Below, piece by piece: positions 27,105 through 59,578 of a DNA stretch of 64,000 nt (positions within the stretch are counted from its first letter, which is position 1; each line of letters begins with the position of its first letter). The stretch covers positions 68,758,001-68,822,000 of the forward strand of contig NC_043005.1 in NCBI RefSeq assembly GCF_006345805.1, in the 5' to 3' direction. A model generated the notes under the pieces. It was not told the DNA's origin, did no database searches, and saw nothing but the letters and a program-made list of their open reading frames with translations. The position numbers and the translations under genes are program-made. The stretch comes from Octopus sinensis (taxonomy: Eukaryota).

Positions 27105-27145
27105 TGGTACTCTTGAGTTTCAAGCGTGATGCAAGTCGTCAGCCA
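27105..27145 (-). ncRNA. Minimal type I hammerhead ribozyme, intact core
   Basis: UGG CUGACGA CUUGCAUCACGCUU GAAA CUCAAGAG UA CCA. 3-bp stem I, weak stem II, stem III ACU(C)/(G)AGU and a GUA cleavage triplet. Confidence 0.7.
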
Positions 27146-27689
27146 TAATAAATTTGAATGCCAAAATTTGATTGCGATTGGTCGAAGAAGGTCATAGAAT
27201 GTAGTGGTTTATTGTAGGTATATAGGTAACAGTTAGCTGGAAAATACCGCAGGTGAACAGGAAATTGATCACGTGGAGGACAGGAAATAGACCACGTGAC
27301 GATTAGGAAATCGGATCGGTTGTCGGGTGGGGAATTGTAAGCCTGTGCTTAATTTCCTGTTGGAGAATTATGAAGTACCTCACTCCACATCGAATTACAT
27401 CCGGACCATAAACTCTAAGCCACTATTTTTTCACCCTTATATATATATATATATAAACACCGTTGTTCCTAACCATTGTTCCTAAACACCATTGTTCCTA
27501 AATTGTTACGGTACAAGGGAGATCACTCTTTTCCTGCATCTGCTTCCTTGTGTTTACTTTTCCGTTTTCCATTTCTTCAACGTTAGACTTTTATATATAT
27601 ACTCCCATTTCGCCTTTTCTTGCTTCTTCTCTTGTCTCATTTCTATTTCGTTATGCTATGTTCGGAGTGTCCGATGACTGAGCTACTAA

Positions 27690-28070
27690 ACCAGCACATG
27701 CAACTAATAGTAACACATAAAACCATATATTGTGTTTATTAACTAATATTTACTTAACGCAGGTTGGACTACGTTTTTGGTTGATCTTAATGTCACATAA
27801 CAGTACACTATATATATGGTGCTTTCGACATTTCCTGATTGGAGCAACCAGGTTGGAAACTGTTATAAGCCTGCAAGTCATTCAGAGGCACAAATATATG
27901 CTTAAATATATATCCAATTCTCTGTAACTTATATGAAAGAATAATGCAACCGTACCTTATATATATTATTATCATTGTGGCTGCCCCCTCGTTATCGAGT
28001 ATGGCCATTGCACGAAGCTTAACTGTTACTGGTGCTGTGATCGAATGTGACTTTTTAGCCCAGCTAAGAT
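27690..28070 (-). mobile_element. Older Helitron PIF1 helicase fragment
   Basis: [16 protein letters not shown] (resembles LIIWDExxM) and [11 protein letters not shown] (resembles FSxWLLxIGNG). 27818-27866 is similar at the DNA level to 29116-29162. Confidence 0.6.
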
Positions 28071-28509
28071 CTACAATGTCATACATACATACGTACATAT
28101 ATATATATAATATATATATATATATATATATATTATATATATATGTGTGTGTGTGTGTGTGTGTGTGTGTGTGTGCATGTGCGTGTATATATATATATAT
28201 ATGTATATATATATATGTATATATATATATTATATATATATATATATATATATATATATATATATATAATATATATATACATATAGGTTTAGGAACAATG
28301 GTGTTTTTATGTATGTATATATATATGTGTGTGTGTGTGTGTACTAGCATTGCCCGCGAATGAAATTTTTCCTTATATACTGTAAGAGAAAAGAAAAATA
28401 TGTTGTATATATTGTATAGGAATTTGTTATACTAAATTCAATTTACTCTCCAATTTGGATACAATTTATTTTTTAATTGAGCAATCATTTCTCAATTAAT
28501 AATACGAAA

Positions 28510-28636
28510 TAAAAATAATAATAATAATAATAATAATAATAATAATAATAATAATAATAATAATAATAATATATAATAATAATAATAATAATAATAATAA
28601 TAATAATAATAATAATAATAATAATAATAATAATGA
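28510..28636. repeat. (TAA)n microsatellite
   Basis: Directly visible. Confidence 0.97.
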
Positions 28637-29340
28637 TAAGAAACGAACATACAAAATTTACCACTTTTATGAAAGGAAATAAATTCTAACACAAATATAG
28701 GAATTTGTGTAAGAGCTTCTGCGTAAACAACATTATTTGCTTTCTAGTTTGGAGCATAAAAAAATAGGCCTTGAAAACTTCCTACACTGGTGCAACCAAC
28801 ATAAATTTTGACCATGAGAAAAGCAAAGCCAGTAGAATTCAAAGTCTGACCCTGCACTTATTAATAGATATTGCAAAGCAAAGTCGCACTGTGAATTTTC
28901 TTCGTTTGAACTCAACCATTTAATTATTAATTCATTAATTCATAGTTACTCCTTGCTACTGTCACATTTTTTGAGCAAGAATTGCCCTTTTACACAACCA
29001 ATTATGTGAATTATAATTATTACTTAAGTCTGGAAATACCCTGTTCTTCAATTCAGCTAGGGAATTCACTGTCATACCAATATGAGCCAAACTGATATTA
29101 CCATTCCTATCAAATGGTACTTTTCCATTTTCTAATTAGAGCAGCCAGGTTGAAAACTGTTTGGCACATTAGTCTCCATGTAATAAAACTCGCACGTTAG
29201 TATTGAAGGAGAATTTCAGTACTTTATTCCATCAGATCTTGTTAGTCGCGGAATGGCTGGTGATGTCTGTCTGAAGTATCCTGATAAAACTAATGTATCT
29301 TCTCCCACGGATTCATTGTTGCCTCTCATGTCCTGTAAGG

Positions 29341-29643
29341 CAGTGCTACTGAAAGTTGTGGTCCACAGACCGGTGCCGGTCTGCGAGCCATCTGCTGCCG
29401 GAAAGCGGCGAGTTTCAAGAAAAGAAAGAATCATTTTAAAATGCTTATAAAATGCTTAGGTAATATTGTATTATTTGTTTACGAAATAAATATAAGATTT
29501 TTAGAAATTGTTAACTTTTATTATAGTCATTTTATATACTGTTTTCAGTATAAATTAATATTACATAGAAATATTACTAGTCCCTGGCACATTGGAAATA
29601 TAAATCTGCCGGTATGTCACATCAGATATTTTGAGAAGCATTA
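29341..29643. mobile_element. hAT/Charlie-like MITE inserted in the Helitron helicase
   Basis: Imperfect TIRs CAGTGCTACTGAAA / TTTGAGAAGCATTA and an 8-bp TSD-like pair ctgtaagg / aagtaagg. Removing it restores GKTLQDMRGNN. Confidence 0.75.
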
Positions 29644-57149: not shown

Positions 57150-57950
57150 CAATTACTTTTTCAAATGTAAGCGTACAAAAAAGAATGCAGTAGATAAATC
57201 TACGAACTCGGGCTGCATAGATATAGTGGACTTACGTAATACATTATGTGGAAATTTATTAAATCGTATTGGCTTATAACACACCTCTTCTTGTGCATGC
57301 CATAACACACATATCTTTATTGTGTTTATTTAGTAAATTGTTTGAGTTTGCTAAGGGACCTCTAACGACTCACACATTCAAAACCTCACAAAAACGCTCC
57401 CAGTATTTTGGGGCAAATCATATAAGAAATCTTTAAAAACTGTATAATAATCATGGATTTACTCTGCTGGGGGACTTGTGAATCTAAATCAAGTCTTAAA
57501 GGACTCATGCCTCTGTAATCAATTGCGTTAGTTCATGTGATTTACTGAACATACCATCAACGTCATTCCGTAAGTCCCTGTGTAATCCCTCGTATGTTAT
57601 CTTCTGTATCAATGGCATATAACTGCGCTTTGCTTATAATAAGTGCAGTGCATCGAAATATCAGGTACTATCACCGTTTGCGTAGCATTTAGCCTCAAAT
57701 CCTATAATACACAGACCAGATTAGCCATCAACTATGCATTGGTTCATCCCATAATTAATGTGGTTTCTCATACTACTGTTAGTTTTCAAAATTAAGAAAA
57801 ACAAAGTTTTTTTTTTAATCTGAAATATACTCTGCTCCATTTTCTACCATGCTCTTCCATCTATCTGGTAGAATTGCAAAGCCCCTCTTTCAAGATTTGA
57901 CCGTGACGAAAACTACTCCTCCAACACTATTCGGACACACAGAATTCATC
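57150..57950 (-). mobile_element. Possible highly decayed LINE RT
   Basis: AIDYRGMS resembles NYRGISL, and a downstream VFKDF resembles VFIDF. Weak. Confidence 0.3.
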
Positions 57951-58137
57951 ATCATTATCATCATCCTCATCAACATAATCACCATTATCATTATTATTAT
58001 TATTATTATTATTATTATTATTATTATTATTATTATTATTATTATTATTATTATTATTATTATTATTAATATTATTATCATCATTATTATTATTATTATT
58101 ATTATTATTATTATTATTATTATTAGTATTATTATTA
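57950..58137. repeat. (TCA)/(TTA)n microsatellite
   Basis: Directly visible. Confidence 0.97.
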
Positions 58138-58199
58138 CATTTATCTCTCTATCTCTCTATCTCCTTTTGTATATATATATATACATAATTCAAATTTTT

Positions 58200-58553
58200 C
58201 CATCCAAATGATTTGGAAGACCGCGGAATAAATGATAATCAGATGGGATAATGTCCGGTGAATATGCCTCCTTCTCTTGCACTCTCCTGTCTTTGAAAGA
58301 ATATTTAAGAACTTTTTCTTCGCCCATTCCCTTCCGGTCATTTCAATGTGTGATCGCGTGTGTAACGTTGGCGATTTTCTTTGTCCGTCTTCCCTTCTTT
58401 GGACTTCTTTTTTTTTCTACATTTCTGACGAAGAGCTCTGCTCGCAATGTTAAATCTTCCTTCTTTCTGTCCTTTCCTGAGTGTCCAATAACACTATACT
58501 TATTCCACATCCTTGCGTTGTTGTGTTTTCTCTCTGTTCATGTATGGATTAAC
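58200..58553 (+). mobile_element. PLE pLTR-like repeat with degenerate HHR (58421-58455), ending near (TA)n
   Basis: ATTT CTGACGA A GAGC TCT GCTC GCAAT GTT AAAT. Homologous to 20450-20616; both copies end in ggattaac. Confidence 0.65.
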
Positions 58554-59532
58554 GATACGTACATACATATATAAGTATATATATATATATATATATATAT
58601 ATATATATATATAAGTTTGTGTGAGTGTGTGCGTGCGTTTATGTGTGTGTATGTACATATATACATACACACACACACACATATATATATAATATATATA
58701 TATATAATATATATATATATATATATATATATATGAGATATGGTATGAATCTTGCCGGTGGCTGCTCTATTCTATGATTTAACTACTTCTGGTTAACAAT
58801 TTCTGCATTGAAACAGGTCGACTTGAATATATTAACAATTGCAGGGATAGTAAATAGTTCACAATTGAAATATCATAAGTGCATTCAAATTATTTAACCC
58901 GTCCAACTACATATGAAAAGTATAATTTGATATTTTTCAACAAATTCTGTTTCACGGTGATTCTTGTATATTTTTTGCATCAATCACTAAATCAAAATTT
59001 AAACCTCTTATATTCCGCCAGAATATTCAATGTTGCGAATCCTTATTTCTTCCCAACAATATTCTCAATTAAAGTACGTCAAAATAAGTAATGAGACAGT
59101 TGAATCCAAACACAAACTCTTTTTTGGTCTATATTGAAAAGGAAATTTAATGCAATTTTATTTAATAAAACTCTCGATTCGATCTACAAAATAATGTTTG
59201 TGGTGTGAAATATTGGTTACGAATATTTATATATATATAGGTATATATTCTTCATAGATTTGGCCGTGATAAAGCTGTAACATTTCTCTCGGTCACACAC
59301 CTTTATATACACATCTATCTATCTATCTATCTATCTATCTATCTATCTATCTATCTATCTATCTATCTATATCTATCTATTTATATATATATATATATAT
59401 ATATATATATATATATATATATACATATATAATATTAATTAGAGACAAAACCACTATTTTGCAAATCGAACAAAGAAAGACTTAATCCAATACATAAAAA
59501 AAATTAATATATATTAAATAAAATTAAATTCG

Positions 59533-59578
59533 CCACTACAATTGTTTCGTGTCTCTTCTAAGGACATTCATCAGGTGG
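59533..59578 (-). ncRNA. Minimal type I hammerhead ribozyme, intact core
   Basis: CCAC CUGAUGA A UGUC CUUAGAAGA GACA C GAAAC AAUU GUA GUGG. 4-bp stem I, 4-bp stem II, palindromic stem III (ACAAUUGU) and a GUA site. Confidence 0.88.

Follow-up and report, generated by a model that had tools for sequence, protein, structure and literature searches.

Hammerhead ribozyme motifs in a 64,000-nucleotide stretch of the Octopus sinensis genome (contig NC_043005.1, 68758001–68822000; "the window" below means this whole stretch) close a diverse set of retroelements. Eight of nine motifs are the 3′ ends of dispersed repeats and fall into seven unrelated families, each named here after the window position of its motif. 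Jointly, and with a probability of roughly 0.85, we read the eight motifs as type I hammerhead folds ending families that were all likely inserted by the reverse transcriptase (RT) and GIY-YIG endonuclease of Penelope-like elements (PLEs), through a mechanism with circular templates and with copies resembling short interspersed nuclear elements (SINEs) within family 53444. A first reading of the letters alone (the sequence-only reading) had proposed hammerhead-bearing PLE pseudo-long terminal repeats (pseudo-LTRs) and retrozyme-like units of several unrelated families with a palindromic helix III, and this proposal is borne out by parent elements, unit periods and folds.

Hammerhead folds end seven unrelated families

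The window, part of a 2.72-Gb genome, is microsatellite-rich with a GC content of 33%. All nine motifs are present where the sequence-only reading had placed them, five on the minus and four on the plus strand. A strict type I descriptor retrieves two motifs (cores at 59574 and 54020, both on the minus strand), a count reached in none of 200 block-wise dinucleotide shuffles (mean 0.05–0.075 strict motifs), which places the motif frequency above that of shuffled sequence, as anticipated. The Rfam scan of the window returned no hammerhead at gathering score and none among the 150 of 320 E-value matches listed, which are mostly microsatellite-driven microRNA models; 12 loci likewise gave 0 hammerhead matches at gathering score. 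Such misses would be expected for minimal or long-loop variants, and a relaxed motif scanner missed most family motifs because it demanded tight helix II pairing.

The families provide stronger evidence than the shuffle test, since they comprise many dispersed copies with complete majority folds. Eight genome search stretches, one per motif with 20485 and 58421 taken jointly, yielded candidate counts that are first-look lower bounds rather than copy numbers: at least 1166 for 59533, 984 for 53962, 1157 for 27105, 129 for 38098, 1435 for 12815, 4328 for 58421 and 3927 for 53444, and 1 for 47233. The motifs had been taken to represent several distinct families; eight of the nine are multi-copy, and 47233 matches only itself in the genome. 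In each of the seven families, the column majority across the best 25–30 of ~40 scored copies analysed folds into a complete type I hammerhead. The expected CUGANGA...GAAA...NUH core, with three helices and ends in helix I, is present in six of the seven majority folds, the 12815 family deviating at C3 with a core of UUGACGA. Intact cores occur in 26/30 (59533), 30/30 (53962), 18/25 (27105), 8/25 (38098), 23/25 (12815, all U3), 12/25 (20485/58421) and 16/25 (53444) copies, counts that come from best-scoring copies and are biased toward intact ones. Of the four window motifs initially called intact, 53962 and 59533 are fully so; measured against their own families, one helix II pair is broken in 27105 and the proximal part of helix I in 38098.

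The dissimilarity of stems between families was upheld, with none of 21 family pairs convincingly above shuffles and the closest pair, 27105 and 58421, scoring 35 against a shuffle maximum of 34. Helix III is palindromic or near-palindromic in the families. The anticipated stem covariation is found among five relatives of 12815, in which four base pairs spanning all three helices changed on both sides (0/500 shuffles reached the score). It is weak in a set of six Hydra copies of family 59533, at most 22% apart, that retain 98.6% of pairs with one compensatory change (21/500 shuffles reached the score). Core nucleotides are fixed across the Hydra subfamilies, and loop II and N7 vary. Judged from these two small, related sets, the hammerhead structure is under selection between subfamilies.

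A shared integration footprint

Each copy stops at either of two fixed points past the cleavage site; 5′ truncation is variable, inverted arms are common, and most copies adjoin (TA)n. The 3′ end lies 136–147 nt (16/30) or 250–253 nt (14/30) past the cleavage site in the 53962 family, each point being a UA-rich stretch joined to (TA)n, and 171–175 nt (11/25) or 216–227 nt (9/25) past it in the 12815 family. Two-armed insertions combine one short and one long arm in 7/10 cases for 53962, 12/14 for 12815, 11/11 for 53444, 5/5 for 59533 and 4/5 for 27105, or 39/45 in total; the window copy of 12815 is a complete example. We take this asymmetry as a PLE-type integration mark because it matches the PLE "tail" pattern of PMC8557442.

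The window contains 99 perfect (TA)6 tracts. The closeness of the motifs to (TA)n, pointed out in the sequence-only reading, exceeds expectation from random positions: six of nine motifs have a perfect (TA)6 tract within 250 nt downstream, compared with 20.6% of random positions (P = 0.004). For the seven motifs originally described as anchored, perfect (TA)6 lies 51, 131, 260, 114, 219, 114 and 124 nt downstream, the 260 nt belonging to 53962. At the level of copies, (TA)5 within 400 nt downstream was compared with a distant control window, giving 28/30 versus 13/27 for 59533, 30/30 versus 7/28 for 53962, 23/25 versus 6/25 for 27105, 18/25 versus 6/23 for 38098, 20/25 versus 7/24 for 58421, 11/25 versus 5/25 for 12815 and 1/25 versus 7/25 for 53444. 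The enrichment is strand-specific. Anchoring on (TA)n is not supported as a general rule: it holds for five families, in part for 12815 and not for 53444.

Retrozyme-like units with PLE-type ends

Families 12815 and 53962 consist of units without an open reading frame (ORF), each with one type I hammerhead. The head-to-tail period is ~355 nt in 20/25 loci of 12815 and 497–500 nt in 16/30 loci of 53962, and locus L253 holds a full dimer of a retrozyme-like unit. No PLE ORF was found upstream in the 12815 loci, and two unrelated-looking matches were found in the 53962 loci. Natural monomers folded as predicted circles are 68% and 64% paired (z −5.1 and −5.0). Both families are retrozyme-like non-coding units that likely hitch-hike on PLEs, the partner being deduced from their integration marks.

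The 12815 family is young (2% divergence). All 23 of its intact cores carry U3 and retain G8, with no C3 among them, and its relatives carry C3. The natural core variant in PMC4209133 and PMC3088659 is U3-A8, and a U3·G8 core family of this kind is not described in the literature covered. C3-bearing relatives of the 355-nt unit and other hammerhead families absent from the window occur at L009, L026, L242 (7707), L249 (1824), L017 and L242 (9957).

Four public contig sets, presumed to be RNA, cover 29, 29, 26 and 17 of 29 bins of one 499-nt unit, and its end-to-start joint appears in three of the four. The same joint is present in genomic copies, so it is uninformative on circles or expression. 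At 54120–54154 on the minus strand, the 499-nt unit holds a CCGCCATNTT-type motif that resembles a YY1 site, 100–130 nt before the hammerhead, a possible internal promoter.

A tRNA-like cassette in a Penelope/Poseidon-type PLE

By its motifs, family 53444 is the 3′ end of a PLE of the Penelope/Poseidon type, the motif features being in part ones that we take to mark this clade. The parent encodes an RT (RVT_1, E 1.5e-9) followed by a C-terminal endonuclease with CCHH, and has no zinc-finger linker. Upstream of (AAT)n and the hammerhead is a tRNA-like cassette of 73 nt, in which A- and B-box-like motifs and a loop of the anticodon type are evident. It directly follows the stop codon in 19/19 distinct endonuclease-anchored loci (21 fetched, 2 duplicates dropped), and a hammerhead follows within 600 nt in 13 of these 19. 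A 28-mer from the cassette has 1011 exact genome matches versus 0 for the reversed control; downstream of the first 30 matches, a hammerhead is present in 22, with an intact core in 10. Short copies have the same 3′ end as ORF-bearing copies. No full-length parent is among the recovered copies, in which the longest shared 5′ extent is 1.4 kb. A Hydra-like RT piece upstream of one copy (L180/L264) lies on the far side of an inverted arm, and the discovery of the Poseidon-type ORF led us to disregard it.

The 5′ starts of 30 cassette-anchored copies, a set that includes the near-duplicates L293/L294 and, as L296/L297, the arms of a single insertion, are concentrated at the cassette edge. Seventeen lie at −6 to 0 of the cassette and eight at +3 to +12, four copies extend 197 to >436 nt into the ORF, and one is complex. 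A constant truncation rate, derived from +1 to +12, predicts ~4 starts in the 7-nt interval and almost no ORF-bearing copies, which implies two templates, a long RNA and a short RNA that begins at the cassette. The short RNA is most simply explained by a polymerase III start: copies retain short leaders, the start does not depend on where the inverted arm joins, and T4 runs are few, occurring between cassette and 3′ end in only 3/22 copies. The cassette is likely an RNA polymerase III promoter that gives rise to a short SINE-like sub-population. Ends and inverted arms of the short copies are of the PLE type (11/11 with a short and a long arm) and not of the LINE (long interspersed nuclear element) type, for which reason we call them SINE-like rather than classical SINEs.

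Taken further, the 53444 PLE may have captured a polymerase III promoter and so generated its own ~300-nt, tRNA-headed and ribozyme-bearing SINE, copied by the parental enzymes and outnumbering the parent; it would be a SINE whose driver is a PLE rather than a LINE, with the parent still joined to it. The same proposal includes two retrozymes that have no detected sequence kinship with PLE ends, one with a U3·G8 core, and that carry the full PLE footprint and two fixed priming sites as if copied from circles by PLE enzymes. We advance this combined proposal tentatively, at slightly less than an even chance.

Only a little less plausible is an account in which 5′ ends pile up where the RT stalls or folds back at a local hairpin, or where RNase P cuts a polymerase II transcript, the cassette being a passive old SINE or tRNA insertion. 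A small inverted repeat does span the 5′ edge of the cassette, and several copies join their inverted arm head-to-head there; yet the edge hairpin is weak in the single natural copy folded (−0.7 kcal/mol), and the fixed start persists when the inverted arm is joined anywhere at element positions 1–232 as well as when no inverted arm is present. The cassette followed by (AAT)n resembles an inserted simple SINE and is rejected by default tRNA finders, whereas the rarity of T4 runs speaks for a polymerase III transcript. An RNase P cut at +1 would remove the 2–6 nt upstream of the cassette that several copies retain. If the cassette is a working promoter, SINE-like elements can arise in PLEs and be moved by them, opening a route to tRNA-headed PLE passengers; if it is not, the window is an ordinary, though dense, sample of known PLE debris.

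Hydra-type and probable Neptune-type ends and the 38098 family

Family 59533 is, by motif assignment, the 3′ end of a Hydra-clade PLE. The endonuclease piece in the window has 15,680 genome candidates, with open frames of up to 859 aa. Parent frames of 641–859 aa (loci L207, L208, L210 and L211) carry R-x-K-W-K, DKT, YRDD, CxCx5C, CxxC and CxH, the RWK position reading R-I-K-W-K, and locus L208 displays the order hammerhead, ORF, ~5-kb untranslated region (UTR), hammerhead. The assignment follows from the match of these frames and of the L208 layout to the clade description and alignment of PMC8557442. A Pfam search gave no match for the endonuclease piece or the Hydra proteins.

Described Hydra-clade PLEs (PMC8557442) share with 59533 the RT followed by a C-terminal endonuclease, DKT, CxCx5C and CxxC/CxH, the (TA)n target, a pseudo-LTR hammerhead with helix III, and inverted arms with a tail. 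Family 59533 differs from them in its hammerhead sequence, KWK for RWK, an Asn-rich insert, a tail of ~100 nt against 30–40 nt, and a repetitive 3′ UTR of 3.6–5 kb that brings the total to ~8 kb against "generally <3 kb". The supplement of that paper (Craig et al. 2021) lists an octopus member, Hydra-1_Obim, with a different hammerhead. What is new for 59533 is only the family and its ~8-kb length. Within the window, its 3′ UTR at 60851–62203 consists of degenerate CA/TG-rich repeats of ~600–730 nt whose number differs among copies. A further Hydra 3′-end fragment without a hammerhead lies at 12457–12566 on the plus strand (76% identity), with the 355-nt unit inserted in its terminal TA tract.

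Families 20485/58421 and 27105 are probably Neptune-type 3′ ends. Of the RT-endonuclease ORF with a CX2-5CxxC linker that would run up to a Neptune hammerhead end, Neptune-like pieces lie upstream in sense only in L147/L270 and L069/L263, and a 58421-like end follows a young Neptune copy in L246. A separate young Neptune-clade family carries a hammerhead-shaped pseudo-LTR motif in which helices and palindrome are present and CUUUUGA replaces CUGAUGA, so that G5 and A6 are lost, in 6/6 copies (L245, minus strand, ~7500–7600; L249; L247; L240; L243; L236), all ending in (TA)n. The window also holds a decayed Neptune-type RT-endonuclease ORF at 18040–19692 on the plus strand, with 36–37% identity to young Neptune proteins and 6358 genome candidates for its thumb region. 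It was considered as the parent of 20485 and is unlinked, a (TA)n tract and ~700 nt lying between them.

Copies of 38098 share more than 1.5 kb upstream. Their origin as a Naiad end was rejected, as by eye they show no likeness to the Naiad_Obim or Naiad_Ovul 3′ ends (PMC8557442). Those Naiad ends, given in the supplement of that paper, have GAAA upstream of CUGAUGA in a "half core" and, by eye, may represent a permuted hammerhead. Membership of 47233 in any family is not supported, the putative relic being single-copy.

Proposed mechanism and alternatives

In the mechanism that we propose, tandem transcripts would be cut by their hammerheads, probably as dimers through the palindromic helix III, a mode of action suggested by the palindromes and the literature, and the cut RNA would be ligated into circles. 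The endonuclease would nick the target, and the nicked strand would prime on a short UA-rich RNA stretch 80–250 nt past the junction. As copying ran on past the junction, it would give the insertion terminal redundancy and, near its 3′ end, an intact hammerhead. In the 53444 family, the cassette would drive a short polymerase III RNA that is copied as a SINE-like sub-population.

Several observations weigh against this reading. Minimal PLE hammerheads cleave poorly in vitro (PMC4209133), 8/9 Xenopus dimers were uncleaved (preprint 10.64898/2026.07.22.740005), and the U3·G8 core of 12815 would be expected to lower activity, judging from the C3-G8 pair (PMC3088659). The link to Neptune consists of sense Neptune-like pieces in 1/5 extended loci for 27105, and in 1/3 extended loci plus L246 for 58421. 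For 38098 there is no ORF in five extended loci and none upstream in three frames; 47233 has no family, its one genome match being itself and the 1.4 Mb of retrieved loci containing none. Neither the 355-nt nor the 499-nt unit resembles any sampled PLE end in sequence. The covariation sets comprise only 5 and 6 rows of related sequences, the Hydra score being within reach of shuffles. For the cassette, default ARAGORN calls a tRNA in 0/25 loci and Rfam in 0, and relaxed ARAGORN settings give 3/40 versus 0/400 shuffled, and 11/40 versus 15/400.

A less probable account, to which we give appreciably under an even chance, retains the PLE origin and treats the hammerheads as mostly non-cleaving recognition or structural signals. 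The templates would be linear, uncleaved transcripts of tandem masters, and the terminal redundancy would copy the master's tandem arrangement. Linear templates of this kind account for the same DNA pattern, and the cleavage site is intact near the 3′ end of every insertion. In addition, the 12815 family has spread to its at least 1435 candidates with a U3·G8 core, the young Neptune family has lost G5 and A6 from its motif, in vitro activity of PLE hammerheads is low (PMC4209133), and Naiads thrive without canonical hammerheads (PMC8557442). Non-cleaving signals sit poorly, however, with the Hydra subfamilies, in which core nucleotides are constant while loops and N7 vary, and with the relatives of 12815, whose helices covary and which retain C3. 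Animal retrozymes of this size have moreover been demonstrated as circles in coral, mussel and axolotl (PMC7229834).

Far less probable is the suggestion, also made in the sequence-only reading, that the window is an intron of a minus-strand gene and that intact hammerheads cut or regulate host pre-mRNA. The four intact-core motifs do all lie on the minus strand (chance 1 in 8), but motifs occur on both strands, the window and the 10 kb flanking it on each side yielded no host exon, and the intact motifs are typical of the large families to which they belong, showing no sign of local conservation. One would also expect sense-strand cleavers to be purged, and retrozymes are depleted in Xenopus introns (preprint 10.64898/2026.07.22.740005). 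The idea that the motifs are chance matches in AT-rich, repeat-rich DNA, lying near (TA)n through microsatellite density alone, draws on the 99 (TA)6 tracts, the absence of Rfam hammerheads and the single-copy 47233, and stands only for 47233, being refuted for the other eight by the strict count that 0/200 shuffles matched and by seven independent families with the full fold at the same relative place, covariation and strand-specific (TA)n enrichment.

Relation to known elements

Hammerheads in PLEs, hammerheads in retrozymes and the link between the two are already known. New here are a PLE that bears a tRNA-like cassette and has probable SINE-like progeny, unrelated retrozymes that show the PLE footprint, and the family with a U3·G8 core; the endonuclease at 63078–63458, the 355- and 499-nt unit structure and the tRNA-like cassette go beyond the content of the sequence-only reading. 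In the literature covered, which did not include Repbase or Dfam, where these families may already be listed, we found neither a PLE whose pseudo-LTR contains a tRNA-like cassette nor a SINE driven by a PLE, nor any account of retrozymes in cephalopods.

Minimal hammerheads in PLE pseudo-LTRs, with many families per genome, low activity and a circle model, were described by Cervera and de la Peña (2014; PMC4209133). The Penelope/Poseidon and Neptune hammerheads in that paper share with 53444 and 58421 a helix II preceded by an extra nucleotide, a helix I that is short and a helix III reduced to a bare palindrome, and the abundance of families per genome, mostly as truncated single copies, is likewise similar. 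The 53444 parent differs from those PLEs in the tRNA-like cassette and (AAT)n between stop codon and hammerhead.

Animal retrozymes, which occur as circles, have PLEs as a "strong candidate" partner (PMC7229834), and vertebrate retrozymes are presented as non-autonomous PLE derivatives in a 2026 preprint (10.64898/2026.07.22.740005) that argues the partnership from co-occurrence and pseudo-LTR homology in frogs. According to a 2020 review (PMC7761336), metazoan retrozymes show no motif revealing a partner and no promoter. The non-LTR retrozymes of PMC7229834 and the preprint resemble 12815 and 53962 in being ORF-less units of a few hundred nucleotides with one type I hammerhead each, GC below 50%, strong circle self-pairing and co-resident PLEs. 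The octopus units differ from them in occurring mostly as dispersed insertions of 1–2 units; these insertions target (TA)n, have inverted arms of the PLE type and stop at either of two fixed 3′ ends. The octopus units also have no detected homology to sampled pseudo-LTRs, whereas 24/57 Xenopus families matched known elements, nearly all PLEs (preprint 10.64898/2026.07.22.740005). The 499-nt unit exceeds the 150–450 range of PMC7229834 and falls within the 51–972 range of the preprint.

Two further systems parallel the 53444 arrangement. The schistosome elements SM-alpha and Sj-alpha (PMC6765202, PMC8490949) are likewise short retroposons in which a polymerase III-type promoter precedes a type I hammerhead. 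Non-coding and tandemly repeated, SM-alpha has no partner named in the passages covered, whereas the 53444 cassette lies within an RT-endonuclease PLE, and the short copies that carry it are monomers, dispersed and with ends of the PLE type. The TRIMp3 elements Cassandra, Helenus and Ajax (Kojima 2024; PMC10886601) carry a small RNA-derived polymerase III promoter in the terminal repeat, proposed to have arrived by SINE insertion. They are non-autonomous LTR elements with a primer-binding site and polypurine tract and no ribozyme; in 53444, the coding PLE copies themselves carry the cassette.

These comparisons bear on the role of hammerheads in PLEs and on which enzyme moves animal retrozymes. 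They add evidence of a different kind, from an invertebrate, namely a shared integration footprint (short and long ends, inverted arms and (TA)n) with mapped internal priming points. Very young families (0.5–2% diverged) are directly assayable, including the natural U3·G8 core with its C3 relatives as controls.

Other features of the window

Table 1. Window positions of hammerhead-bearing elements and their parts.
Feature	Position	Strand	Basis or detail
Two-armed insertion of the 355-nt unit	12566–13074	+	Copy comparison; inverted arm 12566–12693 (short end), direct arm 12690–13074 (long end; a single unit with 30 nt of terminal redundancy), followed by (TA)16
Type I hammerhead, long extended helix I	12815–12859	+	G8/A9 lost in this copy; family core UUGACGA (U3·G8)
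Short 5′-truncated copy of the 58421 family within a (TA)n tract	20452–20616	+	Hammerhead 20485–20518 damaged
Old 3′ end of a probable Neptune-type PLE	27075–27335	-	Hammerhead 27105–27145, intact core, extended helix I; ends near (TA)n
Old 3′ end with long AT-rich 3′ part	37977–38968	-	Hammerhead 38098–38164 with a helix II that is very long, 9+8 bp for the family; (TA)n at the end
Hammerhead-like relic	47213–47276	+	CUGAUGA, GGGA for GAAA, 8-nt palindrome, GUC; single-copy
5′-truncated 3′ end of Penelope/Poseidon-type PLE	53385–53676	-	Copy comparison; B-box half of cassette, (AAT)n, minimal hammerhead, 3′ end; no (TA)n anchor
Minimal hammerhead, core damaged in this copy	53443–53488	-	Family: intact core, extra A before helix II, 4-nt palindrome, GUU site
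Remnant of 73-nt tRNA-like cassette	53643–53676	-	B box and 3′ acceptor side
Near-unit copy of ~499-nt non-coding retrozyme-like unit	53718–54154	-	Copy comparison; "long" 3′ end, (TA)n on both sides
Intact type I hammerhead	53962–54026	-	Helix I 6 bp, 12-nt palindromic helix III, AUA site
5′-truncated 3′ end of a probable Neptune-type PLE	58260–58562	+	Minimal hammerhead 58421–58456 damaged in this copy; ends in (TA)n
5′-truncated Hydra-clade PLE	59426–63460	-	Homology to copies; endonuclease C-terminus, ~3.6-kb 3′ UTR, pseudo-LTR and hammerhead, ends in (TA)n
Intact type I hammerhead	59533–59578	-	4-bp helix I, 4-bp helix II behind an A·C pair, helix III an 8-nt palindrome, GUA site
C-terminal GIY-YIG-type endonuclease piece	63078–63458	-	90% identity to 859-aa frame of locus L207; CxxC and CxH

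The window further contains five copies of an abundant SINE-like repeat of ~450 nt (21477–21930, 32934–33341, 37499–37898, 42054–42466 and 54153–54690). A PIF1-like helicase fragment, possibly Helitron-derived, lies at 29641–30033 on the minus strand (E 1e-16). Three mariner-like transposase fragments occupy 14737–15063, 35860–36135 and 55449–55820 (the last on the minus strand); one has a weak Pfam match, and two carry motifs that we take to be mariner-like. A recent tandem duplication of 344 nt, with 98% identity, spans 2185–2888.

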